Assembly (NCBI GenBank): GCA_964508385.1
Contig: CAZDTM010000001.1
Location: 2,709 to 37,305 of the forward strand
From: Candidatus Woesearchaeota archaeon
Lineage (GTDB): Archaea > Nanobdellota > Nanobdellia > SCGC-AAA011-G17 > UBA489
Direction: 5' to 3'
Length of the DNA stretch: 34,597 bases
How positions within the stretch are numbered: the stretch's first letter is position 1; the number at the start of each line of letters is the position of its first letter. Below the pieces are notes generated by a model that was given only the letters and a program-made list of their open reading frames with translations, was not told the origin of the DNA and made no database searches. This document shows, in pieces, positions 702 through 28,473 of this stretch. The position numbers were made by a program, and so were the translations under genes.

Positions 702-1436
702 TCACTGCGAGGCTATCTTCTCTTTTATGGCTGTGGAAAAGAAGGCTGCAATAATGAGCAGAAGAAGCGGTTGGACATACGCAGACGCAGAAGAAGCATT
801 GCGAACGAGAAGATACAGGTACGCAATGGCGCCTGCCTGGAAAATGGCAAGAACACAGAGTAGCAGAACCCCTGGAATTTTTTTCAAGCTTTCAAGTGAG
901 AACAACTGGTAAAACGCCCTTGTTAACGACTCGTGAAGAGAAGTTGTCATCAGGGTTACCAACACGTATGCTATGGAGAACAGGACGAGGAAGGGCAAGA
1001 AAGAAGAAGGTGAAGGTATGGCCAGTGTTTGTGGCTTGAGAACATTAAAAATGATGGCGGTCATGACCAAGAAGAATCCTGCTGAGAGAAGCGCGTAGTG
1101 CAAAAAGAACTTTTTCTTTTTCTTTATTCTTTTTATTTCGGCATAGAGATGTCCCTGGAATGCTGCCCACAACAGATAGAACATGACTGGAAAACCAATG
1201 AAAGAAAGAAATTGGATACGATTCGTTGGACCCTCAATCTTTTTTAGCAGTTGATATGCCGGAAGGACATTATCCTCAGAAAGCTCTGCTTGCTGGCGAG
1301 CGTACTCTATTTCTGGACCGAGTGAACGTATTGTTTGCAGGTATGAGCCTACTTCAGAGCGTATGAAAAGAAGAAGGGCAAAAGACAGGGCTAAAAAAAC
1401 CAACTGAATGATTGTTAATTTTATTATCTTTTTCAT
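702..1436 (-). CDS. polytopic membrane protein, no recognised family (last gene of the giant-protein operon)
   Basis: 244 aa with about 6 hydrophobic segments and a KRIKKKKKF cytoplasmic loop. Its start lies 4 nt after the stop of the 1900-aa gene. Confidence 0.6.
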   Translation of the reverse strand: MKKIIKLTIIQLVFLALSFALLLFIRSEVGSYLQTIRSLGPEIEYARQQAELSEDNVLPAYQLLKKIEGPTNRIQFLSFIGFPVMFYLLWAAFQGHLYAEIKRIKKKKKFFLHYALLSAGFFLVMTAIIFNVLKPQTLAIPSPSSFLPFLVLFSIAYVLVTLMTTSLHESLTRAFYQLFSLESLKKIPGVLLLCVLAIFQAGAIAYLYLLVRNASSASAYVQPLLLLIIAAFFSTAIKEKIASQ

Positions 1437-1440: not shown

Positions 1441-4400
1441 CTACCCGGTCACATCAAAGGTAAGCCGCTCTTCGCGGGTTTGCACATTTCTAGCGGTTAC
1501 TTTGAAAGAGACTGTAACTTTGTCAACGTCTTCGCTGCCCTTGTTTACAACCAGGTCTTCTGGCAAGTTAAACGTCTTTTTTTCTCCGGGGCCTACACTT
1601 CCTTCAAGAACGTATCTTACGGTTACAAGCTCTCTTTCTGTGTCTCCCCACAATCCAAGCAAGCCTGGTCGTTCGTTAATTCCATAAACTACAAGGGAAA
1701 GCTGCAAATTGTTTATTATTTGATCGCCATTGTTCGTTATTGTAGACTGAATACCCTTAAGGACAACTGCGTCTTCTTTGTTTTCAAGTTTTTGCAGAGA
1801 AGAATGAGCTTCCACTATGGCCTCCTCTTTGATAAGAAGGGGTGGGCTGGTTTGCGCTGTTCCGCTTTGAGATTTGGTTTCTGCTGAAGCTTGCTCTCTT
1901 GCGCTTTCCTCTTTACTAATGGCTGCCGCCCGTAGTTTTTCTGCCAAAGACTGGTAAGCATCTCCCCTCACAAACAGTGCTGTGGCAGCAAGCTCTGGCT
2001 CAACAAATCCTGAGGAGAGCACCTCGTTCAGCCCAGTAATCGCTCTCTCAAGGGTGTTTTTTGCTGCGTCTAAGGATTGTGTTTTTCCCTCGGTGATCAA
2101 CTGGTTTGCGGCGTCTATTCTTCTCTGAATTTCGGTAGCATCATATACTGGAGCGATGTCTGCGCCAAGCTGTTGCTGCACTTGCTGAACTTTTTGGTTT
2201 AGGTCTCCGCTTAGCGCTTGCTGGTCTGCAAGATTTTTTATTTGGTTCAGGGCGCTTGGCCTGTACAACCAGCAGATACCTAAGTCTCGGTCACGATCAT
2301 CTTTTCCGCAGGTGCCTATCTCCTGCCAATTGTCGTTCGTTGTTCCCACGTCTGGATCGAAGCGCTCGCACTTTCTTAGGATTCCTGTTTGCAACAGCCC
2401 ACGATTCAAGGCACCAACGCCGATACCTGCCGCGCCAGCACCAGGAAATCCTTCGTATGGATACTGCGGAAGCCCGCCGGTCACTCCTTGATCTGTTGCT
2501 TCAAATGTGGTGATTCTTCCAGTTTCCGGCTGGCATTCTTCTTCAGAATCAATCTGCTTCATTGCTTCTGATTCGATGTACCTGTCATTGAGCATGTTGA
2601 GGAAATACGAAGAGCTTACTTTTCCAGAGCCGCATGCGGTCTGCACGCCGTAATTTGGCGAGACAATTTCAACACACATCTGATCGTAGCCGGAAGGAAG
2701 CTGCTGTGAGCAACTTTGAATGTCAAATCGTTTTGCCTGAAGTGGCCTGTTTCTCACCATGCCTATGTTGGGACATGTGATGTACACCGGCGGCAAGATA
2801 TGGCTCCCTTGGGGAGTCTTGCTCTGCAGATAAACTGAGAACCGAATGTCTTGGTTTTCGCCAGCATAGACTTGATAAAAGCTGTTGTAAATGCTGAGCG
2901 GTGTTGTCGTCACATCTGTGAAGGGGGCTTCTTCAAAGAATGCTGTAAACTGTGGCGGACTTTCTGGCCGCGTTACTTGCTGGAAGAGTTCACCTAAGAA
3001 CGGAGCTTTTCCATATACTGCGGCTTTGCATATCTCTCCACCGAGCTCTGGCAGCGCTTTACCAGAATACTGCGCGAACACGTTTTTTGCATAGGACTGC
3101 GTGAAATACTCTGTGTACCCTATGCTGTTGTCGACTGCCTTATCAAATGAGGAGTATTCGCCCCCGCCTTTTGCGTCACCGCCAAAGACTCCGCGCAGAA
3201 CATTCCCCAAGATTCCGCCCCTCACATTAAAGAGCGCAATGCCTTCCCTCCAGAGCATATCACAAATACCAAAGGAGCGAAGCTCGTCACAGAGACCAAT
3301 GGACTGGCCCTCTATTTTTGCGGTCGTCAAGCACTGGCGGTATCCTTTCAAGATTGAGTTCAAGTTGTTGAGACCAGCAATCACTCCAGTGATACAAACC
3401 GGCATGACAACATCCCCGCCGGTAACAACCCAGTTTGGGCTGCACAGGGCAACAGACCCGACTAGCCCTGTTTGCACGACGTTTTCCACCGGCCATTCCC
3501 CGCCAAAGTCGCAACGCGAGGTTGGGCAGATCACGGGGTCGCATGCGTTGTACATCATTCTGCACTCTCCGGGCGACATGAAGTCAATGCACTCTGTTGT
3601 TGTTGGCTGCGGCGCTGGAGTGTTTACGAATGTCCCCAGATTTGAGCAGTGGCCAATTAAATCGCCTGATCTGTAGGATTTACTTCCAATATTTCTATTC
3701 AGCGTATCTACACATGCCTTTCCTGCTGCGAGCGCTTTGTACGCGTTCAGAGCTTCTGGGTCAGCTCTTTTCTTAAAGGCGGAGAGAACATCATTCAATT
3801 CCCCCAACCGGACATCGGAATTTGCTCCAAGCTGGCTGTTTGATTCTGGACGCTCGAAGACGAGCTGTTTCTCAATGCGGCCTGAATCTGAGTACTCGTT
3901 TTCAATATAGAGACGAGAGTTCACGGCAAGCTGTTGAACCTTTCCTTTTGCCCTTCCAGAAGGCGTTGTTGACAGCAGATATTGTGGCTTTTCTTCCTGC
4001 GCCTTTGGTGATACGCGCAATCTCTGGCCGTCGATCATGAGGTCGTATTCTGCGGACTTAAACTTTGCTTCGTTCATACCAATCTGCTTCATCTCCTCAG
4101 TGATGTCTCTTGGCTCAAGACCTGGGAGCGTCAGCGCATACTTGTTTGTCTTTTTGTCATATGAGATGCGGATTGGGTTAATTTCTGCTGGGACGTACTT
4201 TCTAATGGTTCGATCCTCGAGCTTTTGAAGAGCAGTTACTTGCGCAGCAGGATTTTCTTTTTCTTTACTGAAGAAACTCTCAAGTTCCTGTCTCTCATAC
4301 TCTGCTTTGTATGCACTCAGAATCTCTCCGCGATTTTTATTGAATACTTCTGCAAAAGCGGCGTCTGTTGATGATTCATCAAGGCGAAGATAACTTTGCT

Positions 4401-7143
4401 GAATGATACTCTTTATTTCTTCTTTGACATTGTGACTGCCAACACTCTGAACATCGGTGAAGGCTCTTTCTTTGTTTCCATCGTGGAACGCCGTAAAGAG
4501 CTGCTGATTAATCTCCTTTTCTTTTAACTCTAAATTTTTGGCATAATAGTCGACAGCGTACACCTCATCGCCCGGGTGGGCTTCCGCGATTCTCTTCTTG
4601 ATGTACAGATCACGTCGGTCATCAAGGTACGATTCGTCTTTCAGCTCAGGGTAGAGTGCGCTCAGCTTGCTGTCTGCCTCGTTCATGGCCTGCTCCACGA
4701 GGCTTAGATCTTTTTGATAGTCATCAATATTGCTAAAGACGCATTCTTCAAAACTGTTGATCTCGCTCTTGCAATTCTCATTATCTAGCTGGTGACTAGA
4801 ATACCTCTGCCTGTAGACCTCGTTGACTTTTTCTCGTGCAATAGCAGATTTTCCACCAAACAAAAGGTTCTTTGCCGTCAACACAGCCTGCGTCGCAAAG
4901 CAGAACGTAATCCAGTACTTATGAATCTCAGATATTTTGGCGATGAGGTTGTCTAATTTGGCGATGAGTTCTTCTGTCTTTTTTATTTCATTGTCAATGC
5001 TGCTGCTGAAAAGAGGAAGATCAAATGGCCTCTTTTCTATTGGTATGTGGATAGTGTAGAATGATTCTGAAAATGCCTTCTCTGATGCGGGAGCGAGTAT
5101 GATGTAGACTTCGCGCTTCAAATTTGTTTTGAGCAATTCGGCGGGGAATGTATCTTTTGCATCCTTGATCGTGCGAGGGAGCATTACCTGTTTTCCTAGG
5201 CTCACTGATGCCCTGCGTTGAACCGTTGTTCCTTTTTCATCTTGTGCAGTACCAACAAGTTCGACTGAAGAATCTTTAATGCGGCTCACTTTCCAGGTAA
5301 TCATTCCGACGGTGCTCTGGCCAACTTGCTCGAGAGGCGTATCTTGGCGATAATCAAAGACGAGCGTTCCTACTTTAATTTTCGCTGTTGCCTGCTGATC
5401 GGTTGTTGGCTGCCTTACATCAAAGAGAATGAGCCCTGTCACTGAACCGTCTTCCTCCACTAGCTCTTCGCTTTGCGCCTGGAAAGCGAGAATATTTGTT
5501 GCGGCAGAGGTTAACTGCAAAAGTGTTTCGAGCTCTCGCTCTGTTACTCTTTCTGGATATTTCTGGCTTGCCTTAATTTTTTCGAATGCTTGCTGAGCAA
5601 GAAATGGATTGCGCTCGTAGAAGAGACTCATCCAGCCAATTCTGTACAAAGCATCAACACTCTGATTTGATGCAGGATATCCGTCAAGAATCTCCTGGTA
5701 TGACTGCTTGGCTCTTTCTACTGCTTGCTCAAAATTGATATCAGCAATCTTTATTACGCCCTCCCCGGTGCTGCTTACTCTCTTTTCAGATAAGACAAGC
5801 TGCAGCTCATTAATTTTTTTTACTAGGTCTTCCTTTTCTGCTTGGGCCCCGTTTACATTTTGATTCTCGAAGAGTGCGGTTGAGTAGGACTCATACGCCC
5901 TAAACACCTTAAAGAGGAGGTCCCTCATGAGGGCCTTTGTGAACTCTGTTACGGCTGGGTCTTTGATCTTCCTGATCGCTGGAATGACGATCGTCTCGTG
6001 ACATTTTTCAACTTCTTCTTTCTTGGAGAGCGTTCCACATGCAGCGTCGTACTGCGCAAGCAATTCATTGTAGATTGTATCTTGAACCCCCTGTTCTGGT
6101 GGTTGTACTCCTGTTTTGTCGCTGATTTCCCTTGGCTTTCCCTGATTTCCCGCAAGCTTCATTGTTCCTATCTTACCACCAATACTTCTCAGACGCACAA
6201 CTCGTTCACCTTCGGGCGTCATGGATACGTCATCAACGTACCACGATGACCCTGAGAAGAGGGGTTGTCCCGTCGTGAGGATTTTTTGCTCTGTTCGTCC
6301 ATTTCTCGTCACGAGCATGACTGCTTTTGTCGCCTCTGCTCTTACTTCTTTCACCGTAATGCTAAATCGATCAAAGAGCGGGCTGAACATGGACATGCCT
6401 GGTCTGTAGGCATCGATCGTTGAGGATGTTGACCCAGATTTTACTATCGTCGTGTGCACTTCGTTCAGTGCCTTATCATAAATGGTGAATGCTGCTTTGT
6501 CTGGCTCAATACTCTCTGCCCTGATGTAGCCCCCAAAGAAGCGATCGTCTTCCTTCGTTGGAATCCATTCGTCATGGCTTTTCTGTGTGAGCACCATTTC
6601 CTGAGGCCCGAAGCTTAGTCCCCTGGAGACATCAAAGTTGATTCTCGACTGCATATCGATGATGATCTCCTCCGGCACATCTTCTTCTCGCGGAATTCTT
6701 CCTATTCTGACTTCGAGGTATCCCATGTTCTCTGGGGAAAAGCTTTCTCCGCGCGGAGGATAGTGACGCGGCGGCAGGATCTGCGGAGCAGTCAGCCCTT
6801 CAGGCCTCGTTTTGATAGATACCGGAACTGAGGTGACACTCGTGATTTTTGGAATGGTGATGGTTGGATTTGTGAGCGTTCCTTTCAGAAGAACGAAGAC
6901 CGTTGCTCCCTGGTCCTCAATCAATTGCGCTGGAACGACCGTTGGCTGGTAGGAATCCACTTGAAGAGCAATGTCTTCTCCGATGACATTCCGCAGTGTT
7001 GGCTCCTGGCCAGAAAACGTACTCTCAATTGACCTTTCCACTTTCTTCAATTCGTTTTCAGGAATACGGACAAGCTGGGCGCTCACCAGCGGCATGCTCA
7101 CTATGAGCAGTATCATCGCCCATGACATGATTGTTGCTCTCAT
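1441..7143 (-). CDS. giant secreted surface protein (1900 aa), no recognised family
   Basis: Uninterrupted 5.7 kb ORF. Signal peptide MRATIMSWAMILLIVSMPLVSAQ. Charged helical middle region, a Cys-rich module (about aa 1140-1630) and a C-terminal beta-sandwich-like tail. The ATG overlaps the upstream stop (TAATG). Confidence 0.85.
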   Translation of the reverse strand: MRATIMSWAMILLIVSMPLVSAQLVRIPENELKKVERSIESTFSGQEPTLRNVIGEDIALQVDSYQPTVVPAQLIEDQGATVFVLLKGTLTNPTITIPKITSVTSVPVSIKTRPEGLTAPQILPPRHYPPRGESFSPENMGYLEVRIGRIPREEDVPEEIIIDMQSRINFDVSRGLSFGPQEMVLTQKSHDEWIPTKEDDRFFGGYIRAESIEPDKAAFTIYDKALNEVHTTIVKSGSTSSTIDAYRPGMSMFSPLFDRFSITVKEVRAEATKAVMLVTRNGRTEQKILTTGQPLFSGSSWYVDDVSMTPEGERVVRLRSIGGKIGTMKLAGNQGKPREISDKTGVQPPEQGVQDTIYNELLAQYDAACGTLSKKEEVEKCHETIVIPAIRKIKDPAVTEFTKALMRDLLFKVFRAYESYSTALFENQNVNGAQAEKEDLVKKINELQLVLSEKRVSSTGEGVIKIADINFEQAVERAKQSYQEILDGYPASNQSVDALYRIGWMSLFYERNPFLAQQAFEKIKASQKYPERVTERELETLLQLTSAATNILAFQAQSEELVEEDGSVTGLILFDVRQPTTDQQATAKIKVGTLVFDYRQDTPLEQVGQSTVGMITWKVSRIKDSSVELVGTAQDEKGTTVQRRASVSLGKQVMLPRTIKDAKDTFPAELLKTNLKREVYIILAPASEKAFSESFYTIHIPIEKRPFDLPLFSSSIDNEIKKTEELIAKLDNLIAKISEIHKYWITFCFATQAVLTAKNLLFGGKSAIAREKVNEVYRQRYSSHQLDNENCKSEINSFEECVFSNIDDYQKDLSLVEQAMNEADSKLSALYPELKDESYLDDRRDLYIKKRIAEAHPGDEVYAVDYYAKNLELKEKEINQQLFTAFHDGNKERAFTDVQSVGSHNVKEEIKSIIQQSYLRLDESSTDAAFAEVFNKNRGEILSAYKAEYERQELESFFSKEKENPAAQVTALQKLEDRTIRKYVPAEINPIRISYDKKTNKYALTLPGLEPRDITEEMKQIGMNEAKFKSAEYDLMIDGQRLRVSPKAQEEKPQYLLSTTPSGRAKGKVQQLAVNSRLYIENEYSDSGRIEKQLVFERPESNSQLGANSDVRLGELNDVLSAFKKRADPEALNAYKALAAGKACVDTLNRNIGSKSYRSGDLIGHCSNLGTFVNTPAPQPTTTECIDFMSPGECRMMYNACDPVICPTSRCDFGGEWPVENVVQTGLVGSVALCSPNWVVTGGDVVMPVCITGVIAGLNNLNSILKGYRQCLTTAKIEGQSIGLCDELRSFGICDMLWREGIALFNVRGGILGNVLRGVFGGDAKGGGEYSSFDKAVDNSIGYTEYFTQSYAKNVFAQYSGKALPELGGEICKAAVYGKAPFLGELFQQVTRPESPPQFTAFFEEAPFTDVTTTPLSIYNSFYQVYAGENQDIRFSVYLQSKTPQGSHILPPVYITCPNIGMVRNRPLQAKRFDIQSCSQQLPSGYDQMCVEIVSPNYGVQTACGSGKVSSSYFLNMLNDRYIESEAMKQIDSEEECQPETGRITTFEATDQGVTGGLPQYPYEGFPGAGAAGIGVGALNRGLLQTGILRKCERFDPDVGTTNDNWQEIGTCGKDDRDRDLGICWLYRPSALNQIKNLADQQALSGDLNQKVQQVQQQLGADIAPVYDATEIQRRIDAANQLITEGKTQSLDAAKNTLERAITGLNEVLSSGFVEPELAATALFVRGDAYQSLAEKLRAAAISKEESAREQASAETKSQSGTAQTSPPLLIKEEAIVEAHSSLQKLENKEDAVVLKGIQSTITNNGDQIINNLQLSLVVYGINERPGLLGLWGDTERELVTVRYVLEGSVGPGEKKTFNLPEDLVVNKGSEDVDKVTVSFKVTARNVQTREERLTFDVTG

Positions 7144-9140
7144 TACTCAAACCTCGGCGGACTCACTGATGGTGAGAGCTTTTTAATCATCTCGTCAATC
7201 TCTCCCAACTGGCTTTGCTTCGTTGGGGTGCTACCTCTTACGGTATAGAGCGTGAGTGAGCTTGCTGTTCCTACATCTTGACGTTGTGCTGTCCATCTGA
7301 TAGTCCCTCCGCCAGCAATCACTTCCTCGTATTCTGCTGCAGGAATTGTTTGCGATGTGCACGTTTTTTTCGTGACTCCTATACTACCTAAAATGCCATC
7401 GACGGGCATGTCTGCGCAGTGCTTAATTTTCTGCTGTTCAAGGCGGAACGGAGGATTACTCTGGACAATTAATTGAGACGTAATCTCATATGGCCCCGCA
7501 ATCAACTGCACTGTCGCTGGATCTTGAGAGCTTATGAAGGAGGCAACAAAGTCTTTTTCTAGGTGTCGCAGGGTGAACATCGCTTTTTCTTTTGGCTGAA
7601 CAGGCCGAATGATCCCGCCAGCGAGCACATTCACCTGCACTGGAAGCGTGTAGAGCGGCTCTAACACGAGGGGGATGGTGAGGTCCTCATTTGTTGATAG
7701 TGCTTGTTCTGCACGGAAGTATCCTTCTTTCTCGGCGATGAGCAGCCCATTCACGCAAAAAGGAGCGTCTGTCTTCAAGGTAGCAGAAAAGTCATCGGAC
7801 GTTGTCGCTCCAAGCGGGCAGGTAGTGGTCAGGCATTTTAATGTAATGGCTGCTCCCGGGATTGGCACGAGTGAAAAATCAGAACCAATGGCGAGGACTT
7901 CCACGCTTACTTTTCCGCCCGTGTTCCCGCAGATAGCTGATGACGCGTCTATCACGGGAATGCCTTCAAACTGATTTTTTCGTGGTTGGTTGTGCTGGAT
8001 CACTGCCATTATCCCAAACTGAAATGTATTTCCTTTGTCGTCGTTCACTTGCACCAACGCAGGAAACTGAATGTCGTACACGAAGTGGTACTGGTTCAAA
8101 CAGAAGAGGCTCTGCACAACTCTTGAGATTTCTGTTCCTGCTGCAAATTGCTTGCCGCTCACTATTTCTCCAGGCTCACCAACAATGTCGAGAGCAACTG
8201 GCCAGCGTGGCGAGTACATGAATGTAGCAGAGATTGTAGCATCTGCGTCCGCAATGCTCACCTGCTTGTACCTCTCCTTTGCCTGCATGAGCTGTCCCCC
8301 GCTTCCTTTGATTCGTATGAACGGCAGATTCAACTCAAGCACCCTCTTGAAATCCTGAATGACTCTTGATTTTTGCCAGGTTCTTGGTGAACACTCAAAA
8401 TCGACGCCTGAAGAAGGAAGCTCGTCGTAGGTAACAATCATGTCGCTCGCATATCTCTCCAGGAAGGTTTGCTCCTCCTCCGCCGTCATGATGGCTGTCG
8501 CCTGCTTATATAGCCTTCCCAGAGGGAATGTTTCTGAAGCGTAGAACTTCTTGATCGTGTAGGAAAAATCTTCTTTTTTGACTTCGACGGGAAAATCTGC
8601 GATCACATATACTTTCTCATCCGCTATGAAAACCATTGGTTCGAGCTCGTGGGGCTGAATGTTGTAGCCCTCTTCTTTGAGTTCCGCGTATTCATTGAGA
8701 CACAACGCTGTTTTTGTTTTCATGTACTTCGCAAACTCTTGCTCCATTGTTTCTCTTGTAGGAATGAATCTCTCCTCAACACCGTTTGCTTTTTTGTAAT
8801 ACCAGAAGGGAACAAGCAGAGTGCCATCGCCAAAGACGTCGATGCTATTGGAGAATGGATTTAGTGGGCCGCGAGGAAGGTCGTCTTCTGGTGCATCCAT
8901 GTGGCCTCCTTGCTGTGACAGCCTTTGTATTCCCTCCTTAAGAGCGAAGGTGAGACAGGATTCAGTGAAGAGATTTACTTTCTGGGCCTGTTGCGGGACT
9001 GTCTCTGCTTGCACCTGCTGCTGCAAAAGCTCTGATGACTTGATGAGGTCTTTTCCAAAGGTGACGGCAAGAATGCTGACGACTACAAGAAGGCCTAGAA
9101 TGACATACGCAGTTTGACCTCTTTTTTTCAGGTACTTCAT
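7143..9140 (-). CDS. large exported protein with a type-IV-pilin-like (class III) signal peptide
   Basis: 665 aa. The N-terminus MKYLKKRGQTAYVILGLLVVVSILAV has a basic n-region, an RG/Q cleavage-type motif and a hydrophobic helix. A CarboxypepD_reg-like beta region lies near aa 410-500. ATGA overlap with the upstream wHTH gene. Confidence 0.75.
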   Translation of the reverse strand: MKYLKKRGQTAYVILGLLVVVSILAVTFGKDLIKSSELLQQQVQAETVPQQAQKVNLFTESCLTFALKEGIQRLSQQGGHMDAPEDDLPRGPLNPFSNSIDVFGDGTLLVPFWYYKKANGVEERFIPTRETMEQEFAKYMKTKTALCLNEYAELKEEGYNIQPHELEPMVFIADEKVYVIADFPVEVKKEDFSYTIKKFYASETFPLGRLYKQATAIMTAEEEQTFLERYASDMIVTYDELPSSGVDFECSPRTWQKSRVIQDFKRVLELNLPFIRIKGSGGQLMQAKERYKQVSIADADATISATFMYSPRWPVALDIVGEPGEIVSGKQFAAGTEISRVVQSLFCLNQYHFVYDIQFPALVQVNDDKGNTFQFGIMAVIQHNQPRKNQFEGIPVIDASSAICGNTGGKVSVEVLAIGSDFSLVPIPGAAITLKCLTTTCPLGATTSDDFSATLKTDAPFCVNGLLIAEKEGYFRAEQALSTNEDLTIPLVLEPLYTLPVQVNVLAGGIIRPVQPKEKAMFTLRHLEKDFVASFISSQDPATVQLIAGPYEITSQLIVQSNPPFRLEQQKIKHCADMPVDGILGSIGVTKKTCTSQTIPAAEYEEVIAGGGTIRWTAQRQDVGTASSLTLYTVRGSTPTKQSQLGEIDEMIKKLSPSVSPPRFE

Positions 9141-9328
9141 CTTTTTTTCACCAGAACAATTTTTGACCCGCCGAATTTCTGTACGTGAGCTTTTCTTTTC
9201 TTTATGAGCGCGTCCACAAGGTCAAAAACCGTTGTATTCTTGATGCTAAAGTGCTTTGCGATCATACTAAAATTGACGAACTCTTTTGATTGGATAAATG
9301 AAAGGAGCTCCTCTTCAGAAGGAATCAC
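9137..9328 (-). CDS. small winged-helix DNA-binding-like protein (first gene of the operon)
   Basis: 63 aa with a GTG start and GAGGT 7 nt upstream. The pattern LSFIQSKEFVNFSMIAKHFSIKNTTVFDLVDALIKKRK resembles a minimal wHTH. Confidence 0.5.
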   Translation of the reverse strand: MIPSEEELLSFIQSKEFVNFSMIAKHFSIKNTTVFDLVDALIKKRKAHVQKFGGSKIVLVKKR

Positions 9329-12272: not shown

Positions 12273-13376
12273 TTATTCTAAGAATTCCTTATTCTTAATC
12301 TTTTCAGGCAAATACTTTTCACTGATGAAACTGATTCCTTTTGTTGATAAGGCCTGAATTTCTACTTTTCCATTCATCTCTTTCATCATTTTGAATTGAC
12401 GTTGCCAGTCTTTATTATTCTTAAACCAGTCATACTCCGATATTTGCTTGATTCTAGCCATATCCTGCTCGGTTAATTTGATTATGTGCTTTTTGAGGTC
12501 ATACTTGATTATGTCGTCCATTGTTATACCGACATACTTCACATTGGGGATTGTTAATCTTTCAGCTGCGTGAGCTAATGCAATTGAGCCATACTTAATT
12601 ACAGAATAAATATAGGCACCAAAAATATCTCCGTCACAGAGAACGTAAATAGGCAAACTTTTTTCTTCTGAAAGCCTCTGTAAAAGTCGTCTAATACCCC
12701 GCGTTGTTTGGCCTTGTGAGGTGACCAGGAGACAATTATTCTTCTGCCAGAATTTATCCTCGTTCAATCGTTCAAAAATTGCTGCTTTCTCCATGTAGAG
12801 AACGTACTTCGCATCGACTTTCTTGAATTTGATCTCGTCAGTAATAGAAGGAACAGAGTATCCGCCGCGTCCGAGCTTAGAACAATCGATAGTATCTCCA
12901 CTGTCTTCAAGGACAAGGCTGCCAACCATGCTTCCCATCTTGTTCGCAGAAACATGCAGTTGCTCACGGGAGAGATCGGCGATGACCTCCAAGTCTTCAA
13001 TCACTTTGTCGCTTTCTGTCTGTTCGTCGACAATGTTGACATTTGTGCCTGGGATGGTGCGCTTGGCCATATAGAAAACGTCTCTGAGATGTTCGTGTTT
13101 TCCTGTGTCGAGAAGCTCTTTTTTGAGAATGCGGGCGACTTCAATGGTTTGGAGGAATTTTTTGGCGTGAGCAACATTGAAGAAACTGCGGGTGCCCATT
13201 TTGTCGCCGAGCTTCAACGTCTTTGATTTTTCGTCGAAGACAACGTTGCTGAGGTTACGAAGAGCAAACTCGATTTCTGGATTTTTTCCTTTCTCGATAT
13301 CATGGACTATCTTGGCGCCAAGCTTCTTCAGTTTTTCAGATCCTTCGTTACTTTCCTTTGCCATTTTCTTCTCCAT
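12273..13376 (-). CDS. top6A: DNA topoisomerase VI subunit A (Spo11 homologue)
   Basis: 367 aa. Has the HLRDVFY catalytic-Tyr region and Toprim motifs (VLYMEKAAIF, LLVTSQGQTTRG, LCDGDIFG). Overlaps the top6B 3' end by 29 nt. Confidence 0.9.
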   Translation of the reverse strand: MEKKMAKESNEGSEKLKKLGAKIVHDIEKGKNPEIEFALRNLSNVVFDEKSKTLKLGDKMGTRSFFNVAHAKKFLQTIEVARILKKELLDTGKHEHLRDVFYMAKRTIPGTNVNIVDEQTESDKVIEDLEVIADLSREQLHVSANKMGSMVGSLVLEDSGDTIDCSKLGRGGYSVPSITDEIKFKKVDAKYVLYMEKAAIFERLNEDKFWQKNNCLLVTSQGQTTRGIRRLLQRLSEEKSLPIYVLCDGDIFGAYIYSVIKYGSIALAHAAERLTIPNVKYVGITMDDIIKYDLKKHIIKLTEQDMARIKQISEYDWFKNNKDWQRQFKMMKEMNGKVEIQALSTKGISFISEKYLPEKIKNKEFLE

Positions 13377-16300
13377 TTGCTTGCGCCAAAATATCCGACA
13401 TGCCCTTCTTTAATATTTTTTGAAGTTCTGTAACAATTATCTCTTTTTTCTTGCCAGTTAAATCTGCAAGCGCGTCTGCTACTTCTGGAATGTATTTTTC
13501 GAATAAGGAAACACGTTCTTTTGCTTCTCGCGCCCGGACATGTTGCCTTATGTAAATGTTCAGTTTGCGCCCACATTCTTGAACTGCGAGTTTGATTTCC
13601 TTGATGATCTCGTCATAATGAGCAACGGCATCTTTTGCTTCTGATGTAAACGGAACCCAAACAGACGCCATATGCACCACAATGGCAACTGGCCCTACAG
13701 GGAGGTTGTCTCCAGATTGTTGCAGCCCGTATGCCTTCCAGTTGGTTTCTTGCACTGCGCGCGTGACCGAACATGCTCCTTGTTGATACAGAAGAGGAAC
13801 CCGGTTCGCGAAGCGAAGAAGTCTGACTGCTCCCTCTTTATCCACTGATCCGCCATAAGCGATTGCTACTTCGATAAGGAACGGAAAACCGCGGTAGACA
13901 CTTGGTTGCCTTGACACGGCAGTGTAAAAATCTGCGGCAATTTCCTTTTTTAGGCCCCTCACTAGCGCTTCTTCACCAATCGGACTTAAGCAGTCGGTTG
14001 GGGGGGCGATGACTTTTACTTCCTGCATTGCTTTGAACAAACGTTCCGCCTCTTGGTGTGTTACTGAGTGCGGTTTGTAATCTGCCTGTAATAATGCCTT
14101 CTCGCACATTTCTTTTGCTGTTCCTGCACCAATACGAGAGAATTCAGTTGTTAAGAATCCTTGAAGCGTGCGTGAAGATGTTTCTTCCATCATACGAATA
14201 AGCGTTCCTACCTCAATGCCGTACGGGTGGGGCTTGATCTCTTTTGCTTCGGCCGGCAATTGATTGATAACGCGCGGGAACTCTATTTTTTCGTTGTCTG
14301 GAGTCAGCAATGTGAAACGAGCGTGAGGATTAACAATTGCTGCTTGTTTGATAAATTCATCGACAGACTGTTTTCCTTTCTGGTATTTTCCTTCAAGTTC
14401 TAATTCCACCTTTGTTCCGTGCTCTTTTTTCCACTCTATCTCCTTTTCTGCGAGGATCTTTGGCTCGTTTCTTTTTGTGTCAATTTGCAGTTCGTAATAA
14501 TGGGCTGGTTTTTTTGGATCAGTGCGAGAGGTAATTTTTGTTACTTTGCCTGTTGTGAGCTGGGCATACAGAACAGATGCAGAAATTCCTATTCCCTGCT
14601 GCCCGCGACTGTTATGGCATGCAATCCCACCGATACCGCCAACAAAGTTTTCACACCCAGGAACCGAAAGATCGTAAACATAGTCATAACCTTGGGTTAT
14701 CATTTCTACTTCTCTGATTTGCACAAAAGCTAAATCTCCGGGGTCGAGTTCTTGTGCTACAACCCCCAACACATTTCCAGAGTTATACTCAATGAGTCTT
14801 CTCTTCTTTCTTCCGATACTTCGAGCATAGACATGTGAACCATCTAGAGCTGAACCATAGATGCTCACTTTGTGAGTCATTGTTTCGATTTTTCCAAGTC
14901 CTTTTTCTAAGCGGGATCCATACGAAGAAGTGATTCCGTTCATTAAAAATAGGTATTGCAGGCCTATAGCCAGGTTTTTGCTCTTTGTTCCAAACATGAG
15001 GCTATTTCTGTCTTTGACTTTGTGACCGTCTCCCTGACAGTAACCATCAATAAAGTGCCACCTAAGATCCTCATTGACTCTAAAAACAAACTCAGGAATT
15101 CTCTTATTAAATGCTCCTTTGCCGCATACATTTTTTATAAACTTTACAAAAAGATTGTTGAATAGTTTAACGCGGATGCTTCTTTCCCGTAGTTCAGTAC
15201 TGCTTCCCAAACCAAGTATTTGGGCGAAAGAAAGCACTTCGTTGATTAATGCTTGTTCATGTTTTCCAAATGTTAGTCCCAGCTGTCTTAAGCCTGGATG
15301 TCCTTCTGCAATGTAAACTCCTAGAAATCTCAAGAATTCTTTGCTAAGCGAAAGTGTAACTGGTAACTGGTGCTTTCGGCCGTGATAATAAGTAACAATC
15401 TGCCCTTCTTTGACCTCATGTATCAAGTTTAACTTGCATACCATCTGAAGCGGCAAAAATCCTTTTGTGATGTACTGCTTCATGCTGTCATCTAGTACAT
15501 CTAAAGAAACACCGCCCAAGTTTACTCGATAAAATCTTCTACTCTTATCAACTTTTTTATGGACAATTTCTGCGCTATCCCTCAATTTTTTTACAATGTC
15601 TCGAATGCCGTATACATAGAACCAATTTCTTCTTATGTCTGTGTAGGAGAGGTACTCCAGTACATTTATCTCATAAATGTTTTCTACTTCTGGTAGCTTG
15701 CTGGGCACAACAATATAATCTCCCTTCTTCAGTGATCGTGCTTCAACGCTTTCAACTTTCTCTGTTTTTTGGTTATAGGTGAATAAGCTGTGACAACCAG
15801 TTACTTTTATTTCTTTGTTATATTCTGTCCTTATCTTCAAGATCTCATTTTCTCGTTTGTGTCTAATGACATGACTTACTCTACGCAGGTGATACTTCTT
15901 TGAAAGGGGATCAAATGCTGGAACTTGGATGTCTAAGAAAGATATATTCTGTTCCTCCTTTTCCTTTCCTAAGAAATGGTCTACAAACTCTCCAATGGGG
16001 ATTAGTTCGACTTTGTTATTGCGTTTGATGAAAATTGGTTCATCTGCTGTTAACGATTGCCTCAAATGATGAAATTTGGAACCATAGAGCAGCTTTCCAA
16101 AGACTCGTGGAATTTGCTCTTTGACAATGCCCGGGCCATTGTCTTCTACGCTGACATGGTATCTGTTCTCGGCTGTTTGCTTGATGTGAACCAAGATCTC
16201 GGGTAGTACTTTCATTTCTGCACAGGCGTCGAGAGAGTTATCAACTGCTTCTTTCACAGTCATCAACAATGCGCGCATGGGGTTATCAAAACCAAGAAGA

Positions 16301-16413
16301 TGGCGATTTTTTGCGAAGAATTCAGAAACGGAAATCTCTTTTTGCTGTTTTGCCAACTCTTCCGCTTTTATTGTGTGCGCTGTCGCTTCCTTTTCTTTCA
16401 TCTGATGTGGCAT
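13348..16413 (-). CDS. top6B: DNA topoisomerase VI subunit B, interrupted by an intein
   Basis: GHKL motifs EAVDNSLDA, DNGPGI and SRGQQGIG. 1021 aa with the intein, about 539 aa without it. The TATA-like box at 16423-16431 suggests the real (leaderless) start may be the second in-frame ATG at 16401. Confidence 0.9.
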   Translation of the reverse strand: MPHQMKEKEATAHTIKAEELAKQQKEISVSEFFAKNRHLLGFDNPMRALLMTVKEAVDNSLDACAEMKVLPEILVHIKQTAENRYHVSVEDNGPGIVKEQIPRVFGKLLYGSKFHHLRQSLTADEPIFIKRNNKVELIPIGEFVDHFLGKEKEEQNISFLDIQVPAFDPLSKKYHLRRVSHVIRHKRENEILKIRTEYNKEIKVTGCHSLFTYNQKTEKVESVEARSLKKGDYIVVPSKLPEVENIYEINVLEYLSYTDIRRNWFYVYGIRDIVKKLRDSAEIVHKKVDKSRRFYRVNLGGVSLDVLDDSMKQYITKGFLPLQMVCKLNLIHEVKEGQIVTYYHGRKHQLPVTLSLSKEFLRFLGVYIAEGHPGLRQLGLTFGKHEQALINEVLSFAQILGLGSSTELRERSIRVKLFNNLFVKFIKNVCGKGAFNKRIPEFVFRVNEDLRWHFIDGYCQGDGHKVKDRNSLMFGTKSKNLAIGLQYLFLMNGITSSYGSRLEKGLGKIETMTHKVSIYGSALDGSHVYARSIGRKKRRLIEYNSGNVLGVVAQELDPGDLAFVQIREVEMITQGYDYVYDLSVPGCENFVGGIGGIACHNSRGQQGIGISASVLYAQLTTGKVTKITSRTDPKKPAHYYELQIDTKRNEPKILAEKEIEWKKEHGTKVELELEGKYQKGKQSVDEFIKQAAIVNPHARFTLLTPDNEKIEFPRVINQLPAEAKEIKPHPYGIEVGTLIRMMEETSSRTLQGFLTTEFSRIGAGTAKEMCEKALLQADYKPHSVTHQEAERLFKAMQEVKVIAPPTDCLSPIGEEALVRGLKKEIAADFYTAVSRQPSVYRGFPFLIEVAIAYGGSVDKEGAVRLLRFANRVPLLYQQGACSVTRAVQETNWKAYGLQQSGDNLPVGPVAIVVHMASVWVPFTSEAKDAVAHYDEIIKEIKLAVQECGRKLNIYIRQHVRAREAKERVSLFEKYIPEVADALADLTGKKKEIIVTELQKILKKGMSDILAQANGEENGKGK
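14611..16056 (-). mobile_element. intein (482 aa) with LAGLIDADG homing-endonuclease domain in Top6B
   Basis: Extein junctions are ...KFHHLRQ / SLTADEPIFI... and ...GGIACHN / SRGQQGIG. Block B is KVTGCHSLF. LAGLIDADG-like motifs are LRFLGVYIAEGH and HFIDGYCQGDGH. C-terminal HN is followed by Ser+1. Confidence 0.85.
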
Positions 16414-17435: not shown

Positions 17436-19736
17436 TTATTCTCGGCGAATTGCCACATCAACGATCAAGTAGAGCAAGATTACTGCGGCGAAGGCGATGA
17501 GGATGTTGATGAGAACCAATCCAAGTGACGCTGATTTTCCGCACTTTCCTTCTTCACAGATACCTATCTTGCATTCATAATCATAAACGCAACTCAGACC
17601 GTTTGACTTTTGAAGAGTAATCTTGTAGGCATCGCTGCAGTAGACGCTTTCTACTCTCTCTCCCGCCTGCAGGCATACTTCGATGTTGTCTGGGCTGCTA
17701 TACAAACAGGCATTGGGGCATTTGTTTTCGATGCACGCTGGACAGATTGCACCGCCGCAGTCGACGCCTGTTTCATCCTGATTTTGTGTGCCATCAGTGC
17801 AACTCTCAGTTGTTTCATTTGCAGGTATACTTCCACAGGGCGAGCATGGACCGCCGCAGTCGACGCCTGTTTCATCCCCGTCCTGCTGTTCGTTGGTGCA
17901 ACTGTCTTCACCGTCAGAAACCTCAGATGAGATTGTCTGTGCTGCTCCCACATCGATCGTCACTTCGGCAAATCTCTGTTGCGTTGGGTAGTCAAGCGTC
18001 ACTGTTTCTGCGAAGTCTCCACCGGGATCCTCATACATCAAAGAAACACCGTAATTTGACAGCCCTCTTGTTGATGTTCCATCTTTCCGTGTTGTGATGC
18101 CCGTGAAGGTTCCTTGCACTCCCACCCCGGAGGTTCCCCTTGTTTCGAATGTCAACCCAATTTGCTCGTCAGTTGAATTCTCGTCAAACTTTGATGCGTC
18201 TGTCTCCAAGGTTACCGCATATGTTGACCCTGAAGGAACTGTCGTGATGAGGACGGCGCCGCCAGCTGCCACGATGTTGACTGTGGAAGAACCGATGGTT
18301 CCGTCTGCATTCAAGTCAACAAGCAAAGGATTTCCTGACGAGGTGGTTATATTAAACGCTACAGAGAGGGTGCCTACTGTCAAGGTTCCTGTTCCTACTG
18401 TCGTTCCTGAGCCATTCACATAGGAAACACCAATCTCTTTATTCTGCGCAACATCGTAGAACCTCACAGCACTCGAAACCGTGTCGAGCTGCGTGTATCG
18501 CACCACATAGGTAACGCCGGTTGGTGTGTTTGTGTTGGTCACCACAAAATAGTTGTTGAGCGCTATTTGAGTATCCTCTTTGATTACCAACGTATCTGCT
18601 TGATCGCCAAGACCAAGGCTTCCTCCGCGGTTTGTTAAGAACGGAATTGAAGACAGGGTATTTCCTGCAGTGTTTACGAAAGACAGTTTGTACTCGCTGT
18701 TTCCACTTGCCGGCGTCAATGCTATTTTGTTGACCGTCGCTTCCCTCAGGCCGTGGTACGTAATGTCCCAGTTTGCGAGCAGGCTGTTTTGGTCTTCAAG
18801 GTATTTCTTGAGGCCTTCATCCTCGGGAACAAAGATCTCGCGTGTTGATGCCAGACGATATTTAATCTTGCTAATGCTGAGGATCGTCCCTGATTTTGTT
18901 GCAACGATGTTCACAAAGCCCTTGTTTATCTTTTTCTTATTTACTTCTACGGAATGCTCGAAACTGTTGTCCTGGTAGTTTGAATCGGTAAACCTAATGA
19001 TTTTTCCCCCAACAAAGAGTTGCGCCATGTTTTTTCCATCGCTGTTCACCAGTATTTTTGAAACGCCAACCATGACCCCGTCGCTCAGGGCATGTATTTC
19101 CCCTTCTGCAAGACTCTCTTGAAGTGGCGAGCCGTCGATGGAGAGCGATGCCTCTTTGCCAGAAGTCTCGACGCGGTCAAGCTTGATGAGGTGCGTCTTC
19201 CCATCGACCGTGAATGATCGTTGTTCCAGTTCAGTCAAGAGCGCGAGAGAAACTCCTGTTGCAAGATCAAGCGTTATCTTTGTCCCGTCCGTTGTGGCAG
19301 TTACGAACGTGTATGGCTCATTAAACAGGTTGAGGCTCTTTTCCGGCAGGTCTTCAAGAACAGTTCCTGCAATATTGCTGTCCAGCCCGTCGTCAAAGTC
19401 TATTTCGTACTCGAAGAAGGCATTTGCTGTGGTGGTGCCGTCATCCACAAACAGGAAGTCTGAAACGACGCCGTCTTCATTCTCTTTAAGCGTCACATAA
19501 GGAAGACTCAAATTGCCAAAACGGAGGTATTGGGCATAATCTGTTTTTCCCTGCTTCGTTGATATGGTCCCGCCAGCCAGTTCAGAAAGCTCCTGGCTTG
19601 TAAAGGACTGAACAACATTCCCCAGTGTTTCGCTGATTCCTAGCCGGTCTGATGAGGTTTCAACACTTGTAGAACTTGCGTGGACTGCTGTAGCAAAAAT
19701 CAGTAGTAGCACTCCACAAACAAGAATGGATTTCAT
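17436..19736 (-). CDS. S-layer-like / surface glycoprotein candidate with a C-terminal membrane anchor
   Basis: 766 aa. Signal peptide MKSILVCGVLLLIFATAVHASS and a Thr/Ser/Gly/Val-rich beta-type body with many N-x-S/T sequons. Two Cys modules of the form C..Q..DETGVDCGG..C..C. C-terminal TM segment LGLVLINILIAFAAVILLYLIV followed by RRE. Confidence 0.6.
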   Translation of the reverse strand: MKSILVCGVLLLIFATAVHASSTSVETSSDRLGISETLGNVVQSFTSQELSELAGGTISTKQGKTDYAQYLRFGNLSLPYVTLKENEDGVVSDFLFVDDGTTTANAFFEYEIDFDDGLDSNIAGTVLEDLPEKSLNLFNEPYTFVTATTDGTKITLDLATGVSLALLTELEQRSFTVDGKTHLIKLDRVETSGKEASLSIDGSPLQESLAEGEIHALSDGVMVGVSKILVNSDGKNMAQLFVGGKIIRFTDSNYQDNSFEHSVEVNKKKINKGFVNIVATKSGTILSISKIKYRLASTREIFVPEDEGLKKYLEDQNSLLANWDITYHGLREATVNKIALTPASGNSEYKLSFVNTAGNTLSSIPFLTNRGGSLGLGDQADTLVIKEDTQIALNNYFVVTNTNTPTGVTYVVRYTQLDTVSSAVRFYDVAQNKEIGVSYVNGSGTTVGTGTLTVGTLSVAFNITTSSGNPLLVDLNADGTIGSSTVNIVAAGGAVLITTVPSGSTYAVTLETDASKFDENSTDEQIGLTFETRGTSGVGVQGTFTGITTRKDGTSTRGLSNYGVSLMYEDPGGDFAETVTLDYPTQQRFAEVTIDVGAAQTISSEVSDGEDSCTNEQQDGDETGVDCGGPCSPCGSIPANETTESCTDGTQNQDETGVDCGGAICPACIENKCPNACLYSSPDNIEVCLQAGERVESVYCSDAYKITLQKSNGLSCVYDYECKIGICEEGKCGKSASLGLVLINILIAFAAVILLYLIVDVAIRRE
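17751..17877. repeat. in-frame direct repeat (28-nt perfect cores, 99 nt apart) encoding the duplicated Cys module
   Basis: ACCGCCGCAGTCGACGCCTGTTTCATCC occurs at 17751-17778 and again at 17850-17877. Confidence 0.85.
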
Positions 19737-20841: not shown

Positions 20842-21525
20842 CTACAGGCGCTTGTAGTGCCCTGGTTTAAACTGATAGATCTCTCCTTCGTTCACCAGGG
20901 CGTCAACAAGGGTCATGAGGGCCTGGCGCGAGATCATGAGCTTTTGCTCGAGATCAACGAGTGAGATCCCTTCTTCAGCACCAGTGATGAGCGTGAGAAG
21001 TTGCTTTGTGGAGGAAGAAGGCTCTTTTGCTGGTAACGTGGAGGCCCCTTCCTTGTGATCGTCTTGTGTTGGTCGTTGCCCTTCTTGGATTGTTATGCTT
21101 CTGAGGGACACTTGTTTTGAGAGCGCCAGCATCCGTGAGAGCAGCCAATGGGGGTCATCGAGAATCTTCACGACTTCTGCGGTCATGTACCTCTCATCAT
21201 TGTATTCCTTCACAAGACCACAGCAGTTGACTAGATCCCCACTTTTTACTTCCTGTATTCTCTTGAGATCTTCTTTGAATGCTTTGATGCGAATCGTACC
21301 TGTGCCATCATCGATCGTTAGCGAACCAAAAGAGCCATCCTGATTGATGTAACTGTCTACTGCGGTTCCGATAAGATTAACTCGCACGACGTTCTTTCCC
21401 CTTACTGCAAATGTACCAGAAAAAGCATCTTGGTCTCCGACAACGTAGGCGCTACCGAGCACGTCGGCGATCCAAAGCTGGTGAGCAGTCTGTCGTTGTT
21501 CCATGTTTAAATCTTTGATATCCAT
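20842..21525 (-). CDS. RPA32/Stn1-like OB-fold protein with a C-terminal winged helix
   Basis: 227 aa. The OB core is VRVNLIGTAVDSY...LTIDDGTGTIRIKAF...GDLVNCCGLVKEYNDERYM. The C-terminal wH is ISLVDLEQKLMISRQALMTLVDALVNEGEIY. Overlaps the mcm 3' end by 19 nt. Confidence 0.6.
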   Translation of the reverse strand: MDIKDLNMEQRQTAHQLWIADVLGSAYVVGDQDAFSGTFAVRGKNVVRVNLIGTAVDSYINQDGSFGSLTIDDGTGTIRIKAFKEDLKRIQEVKSGDLVNCCGLVKEYNDERYMTAEVVKILDDPHWLLSRMLALSKQVSLRSITIQEGQRPTQDDHKEGASTLPAKEPSSSTKQLLTLITGAEEGISLVDLEQKLMISRQALMTLVDALVNEGEIYQFKPGHYKRL

Positions 21526-24500: not shown

Positions 24501-25103
24501 CATCTTCGGCTCAACGAGATCTTCCCTGAGAAACACGGCGATTCTTTTTGACTGCTCTCCCCCCTCGAGAGCTTCAGACGCCTCCTCAACAATCAGCCTT
24601 TGTGTGTCAACCAGTTCCCGATGAACTACCTTGAATTTTCCTCGTCTTCCGCAGGAGCACCTGCTGGGCTCTTTGAATGTTTGCTCTGTCTGCGCGATGG
24701 TGAGGTGATTGCCGCACGTTGGGCACTCAAAACGCGCAGAGATGACTTGGGGCCGGACGTCAGAAGTCTGTCTCACAATGCCATCAAAAGCGACGATCTT
24801 GTCCAAATGTTTGCTTCTAATGTCCCGAATCTTGATGGCCTGTGATTCTGGCAACGCCCGGATGCGGATCTTTACATTCTTCTTCTCTGCAATATCAAAC
24901 TGCTCGAGCGCTACTTCCGACATCTTGAGCGTTTCTTCTGGCTCCATCAGCAACAGCTCGGCGAGCTCGGGGTCGTACTTTGCTAGATCAGAAAACTCGA
25001 TAACCAGGGAACTCTCTCCTTTTTCTACAATGTCGTGAAGCTTAGACTTGTACGTAAGATCAAAGAATTCATGGAACTTATCAATTTGCTCTTGAATCTC
25101 CAT
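21507..25103 (-). CDS. mcm: MCM replicative helicase, interrupted by an intein
   Basis: Zn finger CPTCGN...CSCG. Walker A GDPGAAKS, Walker B FLLLDEMDKM, and arginine-finger region NRFDLIF. 1198 aa with the intein, about 672 aa without it. Confidence 0.92.
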   Translation of the reverse strand: MEIQEQIDKFHEFFDLTYKSKLHDIVEKGESSLVIEFSDLAKYDPELAELLLMEPEETLKMSEVALEQFDIAEKKNVKIRIRALPESQAIKIRDIRSKHLDKIVAFDGIVRQTSDVRPQVISARFECPTCGNHLTIAQTEQTFKEPSRCSCGRRGKFKVVHRELVDTQRLIVEEASEALEGGEQSKRIAVFLREDLVEPKMEKKTTPGAKVRVNGVIKEIPIQAKSGGQSTRYDIMAETNFIEPIDETYEDIVITPEDEEKIKAFAADPEIYNKLGRSISPSVFGHEDIKNALVLQLMGGVRKERPDGTTTKGDIHMLLVGDPGAAKSTILMYMAKAAPKARYIAGRSTTSAGITASVVKDEFLRGWALEAGAIVLANGGFLLLDEMDKMTKEDTSALHEALAQQSYHPDTELMFADGSVRKIGNFVDALLDSNREKVASVGDCEVLGVNNIEVLTTDFKEIFPIKVNRVSRHKAPKHFVEIEYSNGRSIRVTPEHPLFVYGENGIEEVAAIHVRPGMTAPAPQSIQTQKKSQLLAPVIALQGRKQIATPAYIDKDMARFLGYLVSEGHTYYLPRTHYAEIGISNTDSVINDEVRLLFERVFNSSPQTNIRYAYTNAKAKKDLTTTRLPSLRAYNFIKGNFEGIAKKAVYKQTGNIIRTMEGSLQCEFLKTAFRGDGIVDANHLGYSTGSYGLAKDYQDILLQQGIWSYIHTFQAKGKTYFKVYVAGTRSLERFSECILEKSDARYEKAMNVVTNSKKKANSRENVPKYIVRELNNALKELGLSDGYFIRHIKDNHNSHRKTVLRYLNGLKDRLEMVDDVLKNGNAREIRRTARVSVADLAKRMKVSASTVYNLERRKSEHYSKIMKDAARKKIEDLRKKVESIGDYLAGEITTVRVKNVRVIKNCDIPWAYDVTVEPTKTFISEGLVLHNTVTISKANIQATLRARTTLLAAANPKFGRFDPYQPIASQIDLPPALINRFDLIFPVRDLPNKEKDTKIASHILDVQRDPQLAEPEVSTSFIKKYVAYVRQKVHPKLTAGAIDEMKSFYVELRNSGSGTEEGVRPIPISARQLEALIRLAEASARVRLSDKVIRGDAKRAINILKYCLMQVGFDYETGQLDIDRISTGIPASARNKIIVIREIITEMEAQGKKTIPIEDIISEAAEKKLTEAEVEEVIDRLKREGEIFEPRRGWISKI
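22311..23888 (-). mobile_element. intein (526 aa) with LAGLIDADG endonuclease and an extra HTH segment in MCM
   Basis: Junctions are HEALAQQ / SYHPDTELMF... and ...EGLVLHN / TVTISKANI. Block B is RVTPEHPLF. LAGLIDADG-like motifs are FLGYLVSEGH and FLKTAFRGDGIVD. An XRE-like HTH (IRRTARVSVADLAKRMKVSASTVYNLERRK) lies at about 22530-22628. Confidence 0.85.
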
Positions 25104-28324: not shown

Positions 28325-28390
28325 CTTTCTTCCTCCACGATAGTGCTTGCGCACTTTTTTGATCATCTTGCGCTGTAGAGAAGTGCAGCA

Positions 28391-28398: not shown

Positions 28399-28473
28399 GC
28401 CTTGGGAGGGAACCACCACAAAAAGAAGGCCTTTTCTCTGGTTTTGTCATCCAAAACAACAATTTACGTGGCC

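Follow-up and report, generated by a model that had tools for sequence, protein, structure and literature searches.

What does a giant archaeal exoprotein do with a cysteine-rich, partly hydrophobic region in its second half? The question is raised by a gene at 1441-7143 on the minus strand of a 34,597-nucleotide (nt) stretch of contig CAZDTM010000001.1 from a Candidatus Woesearchaeota archaeon, hereafter the window. Woese- and Pacearchaeota are abundant, uncultured archaea with genomes under 1 Mb. The gene encodes a protein of 1900 amino acids (aa) with a Sec-type signal peptide (aa 1-22, VSA|Q), referred to here as the giant. A sequence-only reading of the window had proposed that the region is a disulfide-stabilised domain with membrane-interacting loops for insertion into or fusion with a partner membrane, or else simply a buried hydrophobic core. 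The analysis reported here points to another role, which we regard as moderately probable: the region, termed the module, would be the disulfide-stapled structural core of an anchorless secreted protein, holding the giant on the product of the gene directly upstream and presenting its C-terminal tail.

Clustering and conservation of the module cysteines

The module spans aa 1142-1629 (2257-3720, minus strand), between the motifs KACVDTLNRN and LGICWLYRP. It holds 21 of the 26 cysteines (Cys) of the giant, leaving five (369, 381, 748, 791 and 801) in the other 1412 aa, so that both the clustering and the nearly Cys-free remainder described from the sequence alone are borne out. The hypergeometric probability of finding at least 21 Cys within 488 aa is 4.9e-9. 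An alignment of 121 modules shows 15 Cys that are invariant or almost so (1185, 1194, 1201, 1206, 1250, 1271, 1285, 1294, 1372, 1490, 1504, 1537, 1592, 1612 and 1624). C1211 and C1234 are both present in 97 of these homologues and both absent in 24, with no discordant case, and this perfect co-variation is strong evolutionary evidence for a disulfide between them. C1144 and C1166 occur together in 42 homologues, are both missing in 69 and are represented by C1166 alone in 10, while C1457 and C1478, located in an insertion, are found together only in the source protein (1/121). The earlier proposal of a disulfide-stabilised extracellular domain is supported by the signal peptide for Sec export together with the invariant Cys and the co-varying pair. 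A heme or iron-sulfur role for the Cys was rejected, as the protein is secreted and has no CxxCH motif.

The module is also the part of the protein that defines its family, a set of giant exoproteins of 1.5-3.7 thousand aa. A word-indexed search with aa 1130-1640 as the query retrieved at least 303 proteins of 1.1-3.1 thousand aa (E-values down to 3e-188), in which the module usually lies around residues 1100-1650. An exhaustive profile search collected 1093 cluster representatives at 50% identity, 920 of them below an E-value of 1e-30, and a scan of one genome per species detected the module in 467 species. An open reading frame (ORF) antisense to it (3101-3676, plus strand) was rejected because the minus-strand frame is conserved in these 467 species. 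Within the giant, the module is the best-conserved region, with column identities of 40-61% compared with 6-25% for most of the rest, and the earlier description of it as the most distinctive part of the protein is thus well founded.

Two smaller conserved islands are present at aa 51-300 and 701-800. The second one (4744-5043, minus strand) reaches 45% column identity and contains C748, which is invariant in 31 full-length sequences. Since the 15 module Cys and C748 add up to an even number, 16, an inter-domain disulfide between this island and the module is possible. Additionally, the island holds a moderately hydrophobic segment, KYWITFCFATQAVLTAKNLLF.

The C-terminal 260 aa are not conserved. 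This tail (aa 1640-1900; 1444-2226, minus strand) has no recognisable hydrolase domain and takes the position at which a peptidoglycan hydrolase is found in most homologues examined. About one third of the listed homologues carry SLT, Amidase_2, M23, VanY/M15, YkuD or GDSL domains and about two thirds carry none; in four homologues examined, these domains lie mostly C-terminal to the module. For the source giant, no SLT or other hydrolase domain was found in Pfam and NCBIfam scans at E-values up to 1. The absence of SLT here and in about two thirds of the listed homologues indicates that this domain is accessory and not family-wide.

Structure of the module

An AlphaFold2 model of the module was generated from a 79-sequence alignment and has a mean predicted local distance difference test score (pLDDT) of 70.7. 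Judging from the model and the alignment, the module would comprise four pieces, namely a Cys knot, a helical domain (about aa 1223-1395), a beta-sandwich and a C-terminal beta sub-domain, the last of which would be joined through a floppy variable linker. An N-terminal helix and hairpin are modelled confidently. The Cys knot (aa 1185-1211; 3511-3591, minus strand) has five Cys within 27 aa and contains the motif CDPV[IM]CPxSRC. It is modelled at a pLDDT of 43-62 and is specific to lineages with the full module, being absent from the remote giants described below. The helical domain, modelled over aa 1223-1375 at a pLDDT of 51-79, contains the first of two hydrophobic stretches. In stretch 1 (aa 1219-1261; 3361-3489, minus strand), a short helix, [TS]G[IL][IV]GSxxLC, is followed by an invariant PN, a loop that varies between homologues and the first part of a long helix, PVC[LI]TG[IV]xAGL. 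The model renders these elements as a helix of 10 residues, then a turn and a loop, and finally the beginning of a 28-residue helix. In the 121 homologues, the PN is followed by F, W or Y in 78 cases, and the central loop measures 4-19 aa and bears at least one charge in 112.

The immunoglobulin (Ig)-like beta-sandwich (aa 1398-1510; 2614-2952, minus strand) is modelled at a pLDDT of about 90 and includes the lineage-specific pair C1457/C1478. Its Foldseek matches are ApaG/DUF525, TRAP and GH2 Ig-like domains, with probabilities of 0.97-1.0 and target-normalised template modelling scores (TM-scores) of at most 0.47. The linker that follows (aa 1541-1589; 2377-2523, minus strand) contains stretch 2, is modelled at a pLDDT of 36-40, with disorder over aa 1542-1580, and is poorly conserved (top-residue frequency 0.24, gap fraction 0.37). 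The beta sub-domain (aa 1590-1629; 2257-2376, minus strand) has a pLDDT of 88-94, and its three Cys (C1592, C1612 and C1624) are conserved at 98-99%. Additionally, the module has a set of invariant polar residues, here with module numbering in brackets: D1202 (D73), R1210 (R81), E1329 (E200), Y1351 (Y222), Q1398 (Q269) and Y1419 (Y290); H295 (module numbering) is near-invariant.

Neither sequence nor profile searches against Pfam, NCBIfam and PDB matched the module, and they returned no known enzyme or lectin family, the kind of match that the sequence-only reading had itself named as evidence against its proposal. When the 79 homologues were scanned singly against Pfam at E-values up to 1, only scattered chance matches were obtained; the best, to a class II bacteriocin in 3 of the 79 (E 0.007), is a composition effect. 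Foldseek against PDB returned generic Ig-like sandwiches and meaningless matches to Kir channels (TM-score 0.12, root-mean-square deviation 22 A), and against BFVD it returned nothing below an E-value of 1e-3. The module as a whole therefore matches no known family or solved fold, and one of its sub-parts is an ordinary Ig-like beta-sandwich.

This architecture also invites an explanation in terms of recognition, in which the disulfide scaffold would display variable loops that bind a ligand on a partner cell. Candidate loops are the one between the invariant N and P residues of stretch 1, varied in both length and composition, the linker and the insertions of the beta-sandwich, one of which carries the Cys pair restricted to a single homologue. 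Moreover, Ig-like sandwiches are a common binding fold. However, neutral surface loops would look equally variable, the invariant D1202, R1210, E1329, Q1398, Y1351 and Y1419 indicate a conserved and not a diversifying function, and no lectin or carbohydrate-binding family was matched. Such a role is considered unlikely.

Membrane insertion or packing of the hydrophobic stretches

Both hydrophobic peptides picked out by the sequence-only reading are present, although the second lies at nt 2377-2451 (aa 1565-1589) and not at 2385-2460. Contrary to that reading, they are not strictly uncharged: stretch 1 contains E1220 and D1245, and stretch 2 contains R1581. On the Kyte-Doolittle scale, stretch 1 alone rises above the classical threshold of 1.6, with a 19-residue mean of 1.70 at aa 1239, and the only other strongly hydrophobic segment of the giant is its N-terminal signal peptide. 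Insertion energies were calculated with the Hessa biological hydrophobicity scale as apparent free energies (dGapp) summed over 19 residues, taking the best window. They amount to +6.1 kcal/mol for stretch 1 and +7.8 kcal/mol for stretch 2. As controls, the anchor helix of the upstream partner gives -1.75 and four helices of a 244-aa membrane protein encoded downstream give -3.0 to -0.4; the signal peptide of the giant itself is at +1.4. In about 110 homologues, no internal segment of the module falls below +2.5, and the sole segment that does (+2.1, in P0128) lies outside the module. The dGapp scan likewise revealed no transmembrane segment in the giant besides the signal peptide, and none at its C-terminus.

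The substitution pattern of stretch 1 resembles that of packed helices. Positions 1225-1235, a run of 11 residues, are never polar in the 121 homologues and include the invariant G1226, G1229 and S1230, a signature of tight helix packing. Position 1255 in the second helix is polar in 50% of the homologues, which argues that one face of this helix is exposed. Conserved Cys are located on both flanks of the stretch. About 90% of the homologues lack the first half of stretch 2 (GFPGAGAAGI), an insertion into the region of the module where conservation and order are both lowest. Foldseek searches of PDB and BFVD matched neither fusogens nor pore formers. The module has no pair of hydrophobic helices of some 20 residues that would insert favourably, as in colicins, Cry domain I or the diphtheria T-domain, and none of the PDB matches was a known pore-forming helical bundle, the Kir channels being the best helical ones.

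Loops that insert into or fuse with a membrane are thus hard to reconcile with the positive dGapp values, the charged and variable loop, the flanking Cys and the lack of the first half of stretch 2 in most homologues. The buried hydrophobic core, which had been offered as the plainer option, fits better. A packed core combined with a floppy linker is therefore favoured over membrane insertion, with the non-polar helices probably buried. This also saves effort on a tempting, weak idea, since the hydrophobic stretches are probably not membrane-inserting.

A more guarded form of the membrane proposal would make insertion conditional. Here, the helix-loop-helix of stretch 1 would be shielded and would dip into or perforate the membrane of a partner cell once a hydrolase, C-terminal or acting in trans, has opened the bacterial wall. 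The Kyte-Doolittle peak, the never-polar run at 1225-1235, the aromatic residue after the invariant PN and the homologues with SLT, amidase, VanY, YkuD or GDSL-lipase domains can all be viewed in this light, and the weak top Foldseek matches, the Kir channels, do combine a helix pair with an Ig-like domain. Against this, the insertion energy is strongly unfavourable, the non-polar runs extend over only about 11 residues each, the loop is nearly always charged, conserved Cys sit on both helices with one of them co-varying with a knot Cys, and the Kir, fusogen and pore-former comparisons are as negative as described above. Furthermore, remote giants keep the helix without its hydrophobicity, the retained helix being amphipathic, e.g. 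CLTGINARLVTLRNIL. Conditional membrane activity is accordingly thought improbable. A specific version of it, in which the helix-loop-helix is freed at the contact site by reduction or by the partner and inserts into the membrane of a bacterial host after murein hydrolases have opened the wall, is rated slightly lower still. If it were true, the module would be the membrane-breaching element of an undescribed archaeon-to-bacterium contact machine, core to Woese- and Pacearchaeota.

The upstream partner and the operon

The giant has a regular neighbour. It is a gene for a protein of 665 aa (7143-9140, minus strand), and its 3' end overlaps with the beginning of the giant gene. Of 80 loci, 65 have it immediately upstream, and the others are truncated contigs. 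The N-terminus of this partner, MKYLKKRG|QTAYVILGLLVVVSILAVTF, has a basic N-region, a predicted cleavage site and then a hydrophobic helix, the anchor helix that served as a control above. Q9, the residue following the predicted class III (prepilin-like) site KRG|Q, is conserved in at least 90% of 57 homologues. The genome encodes a prepilin peptidase, with a Peptidase_A24 gene on contig C69, and pilus-type ATPases are encoded elsewhere in it. The partner thus has the features of archaeal proteins with a class III signal peptide, with cleavage predicted from its sequence. The AlphaFold2 model (pLDDT 87.6) shows a long N-terminal helix, an alpha/beta domain and tandem beta-sandwiches, and Foldseek detects a weak local likeness of these sandwiches to the B-repeats of adhesins (SdrD, Cna and SpaC) and to the SlaB stalk (TM-score about 0.12-0.16). 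When 401 high-quality genomes of the phylum were searched with a partner profile, 371 (93%) gave a match.

On the other side, 4 nt beyond the stop codon of the giant gene and in the same direction, lies a gene for a 244-aa polytopic membrane protein (702-1436, minus strand), for which 4-5 transmembrane helices are predicted; in at least 35 loci, the giant is followed by a polytopic membrane protein of about 250 aa. A 63-aa ORF (9137-9328, minus strand) immediately precedes the partner gene. It has homologues at the same place in other loci, namely L033 (54% identity) and L013 (48%), and probably represents a genuine small gene of this operon; the L033 homologue falls inside an extended partner reading frame.

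The near-universal pair could also be explained as a two-component envelope of the SlaA/SlaB type, with the stalk partner carrying the giant as a canopy and the module self-assembling as the core of a lattice. The giant itself lacks an anchor, and SlaB (8qox_B) is a Foldseek match of the partner model, with an E-value of 1.2e-5 and a probability of 0.99. This match is limited, however, to generic beta-sandwich repeats with the low TM-scores given above, and highly variable tails tipped with enzymes are unusual in S-layer proteins. A lattice is therefore regarded as quite improbable.

A helical core shared with distant giants

For the distribution of the module, the same 401 genomes were surveyed, with E-values below 1e-90 taken as the full module. 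Most genomes of the source's own order carry the full module, and it was also found in family f38, which has very small genomes, and in two further individual genomes. Weaker matches, confined to profile positions of about 70-250 in ORFs of 1.0-2.3 thousand aa, come from about 110 other genomes. Ten distant loci were fetched from these genomes for comparison. When the giant was divided into nine segments, aa 1240-1395 was the only one that could be traced in the 10 distant giants, and hhalign aligns this core with them at 99.3% probability (E 2e-20, aa 1242-1439). The helical core (aa 1240-1395; 2959-3426, minus strand) carries Cys 1250, 1271, 1285, 1294 and 1372, all of which the distant giants keep. 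Neither the Cys knot nor the first helix of stretch 1 is kept in them. A partner homologue lies directly upstream of the giant in all ten distant loci (E 1e-78 to 1e-158). A 19-kb region of one distant genome, L091 (G346:C8:1-19000), contains two homologues of the partner along with two giant ORFs that bear the module, indicating that the pair has been duplicated in tandem in some lineages.

Labels and neighbourhoods were read on 80 listed loci out of the 467 species with the module. All except one are labelled Woese-, Pace- or Nanoarchaeota or simply archaeon. The exception, L067 (CAYWKL010000040.1), is an 8-kb contig with a typical partner-giant pair that is filed under 'uncultured Gammaproteobacteria bacterium'; it is most likely a binning error and not a bacterial occurrence. 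Viral contigs were also scanned and yielded no relatives of the giant, which argues against a prophage or viral origin.

Proposed role of the module

Because the giant has no anchor, the partner is an anchored stalk and the helical core is recognisable wherever the partner is found, the module is read as a holding body. In this proposal, the module would act as an oxidation-locked rigid body that docks the giant to its membrane-anchored, pilin-signal stalk partner, and possibly to the downstream membrane protein as well. Within it, stretch 1 would form a helix-loop-helix with two short non-polar helices that contain many invariant Gly, Ser and Ala residues and are packed into the interior of the helical domain, pinned by the C1211-C1234 bond and by C1250 with another Cys, and the loop between them would lie at the surface. 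Held in this way, the module could position the exchangeable C-terminal tail, a bacterial cell-wall hydrolase in many relatives, where the cell makes contact with others.

Several points weigh against the proposal. The helical part is modelled with no more than moderate confidence, and its pLDDT drops below 50 at aa 1350-1391. The wholly non-polar run of 11 residues and the conserved aromatic at the loop tip also resemble a shielded membrane-dipping element. Moreover, the relatives join the module with murein hydrolases, a combination that is likewise found in phage envelope-crossing devices. As a further alternative, the module could be imagined as a cryptic enzyme, with its invariant D, R, E, Q and Y and the near-invariant H forming the active site, but this is highly improbable given that no enzyme family was matched by sequence, profile or fold.

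The module boundaries, the likely disulfide staples and the universally conserved 155-aa helical core together define a tangible target for expression, suited to structural work, to antibody labelling and to tests of what keeps the apparatus together.

Comparison with known families and systems

Proteins of up to 3,000 aa that are specific to Pace- and Woesearchaeota were previously grouped as fam00969 on the basis of a murein lytic transglycosylase domain (Castelle et al., 2021, PMC8204110), and the same large transglycosylases are mentioned by Vigneron et al. (2022, PMC9723730). The source giant shares with fam00969 the restriction to these lineages, the size class of up to 3,000 aa and more, and the extracellular location. 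Its core is homologous to members bearing SLT (PF01464), e.g. P0026 (E 1.6e-145), and it therefore belongs to this family even though, unlike the SLT-defined members, it has no recognisable hydrolase domain. Both descriptions centre on SLT and cover neither the fixed partner gene nor the Cys-rich module, which is the feature common to every member. The source giant thus joins an already reported family, whereas the module boundaries, the Cys pattern and the helical core are not described in the literature searched.

Among characterised systems, the SlaA/SlaB S-layer of Sulfolobales (PDB 8qox) similarly encodes an anchored beta-sandwich stalk beside a large anchorless exoprotein. In contrast to SlaB, in which the anchor is C-terminal, the partner described here has an N-terminal, pilin-like anchor, and there is no sequence homology; the exchangeable enzyme tails on the giant are a further difference. 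The tip complexes of type IV pili, which consist of minor pilins and a large non-pilin adhesin such as PilY1/PilC, likewise combine a very large secreted protein with one that bears a prepilin-type signal. However, the partner far exceeds the size of a pilin, the operon is devoid of pilus genes and PilY1/PilC show no homology to the giant.

Some phage proteins that cross the cell envelope, such as T7 gp16 and the T5 tape measure protein Pb2, combine muralytic and membrane-active parts. The giant family similarly unites murein hydrolase domains and a hydrophobic, Gly-rich region in a very long protein. Unlike the phage proteins, the giant lacks an insertion-competent segment, has no relatives in viral contigs or BFVD, and is encoded by a chromosomal, single-copy gene that is core to its lineage. 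Class II fusogens and fusexins (HAP2, the archaeal Fsx1 and flavivirus E) resemble the module in being disulfide-stabilised and extracellular and in having Gly-rich hydrophobic segments. They adopt an all-beta fold of three domains, whereas the module combines a helical domain with one beta-sandwich; in addition, the giant has no C-terminal transmembrane anchor, and Foldseek gave no match to such proteins in PDB or BFVD.

Genomic setting

The module is present as a single copy in the source genome (839 kb, 94% complete), and the giant and partner genes together account for about 1% of it. The nearest relatives of the source are metagenome-assembled genomes labelled Woesearchaeota. The content of the window is archaeal and includes topoisomerase VI subunits A and B, MCM, TBP and RFC. 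Two of these genes contain inteins with a LAGLIDADG homing-endonuclease domain (Pfam Intein_splicing and LAGLIDADG_3), namely those for topoisomerase VI subunit B (1021 aa; 13348-16413, minus strand) and MCM (1198 aa; 21507-25103, minus strand). The protein encoded at 17436-19736 was assigned to no Pfam family in the scan. Further along the window are genes for a protein with CarboxypepD_reg and winged helix-turn-helix domains (326 aa; 25801-26781, minus strand) and for a CARDB-domain protein (600 aa; 26858-28660, minus strand). Homologues of both lie downstream of the giant operon in locus L001, which indicates local synteny with this closest relative.

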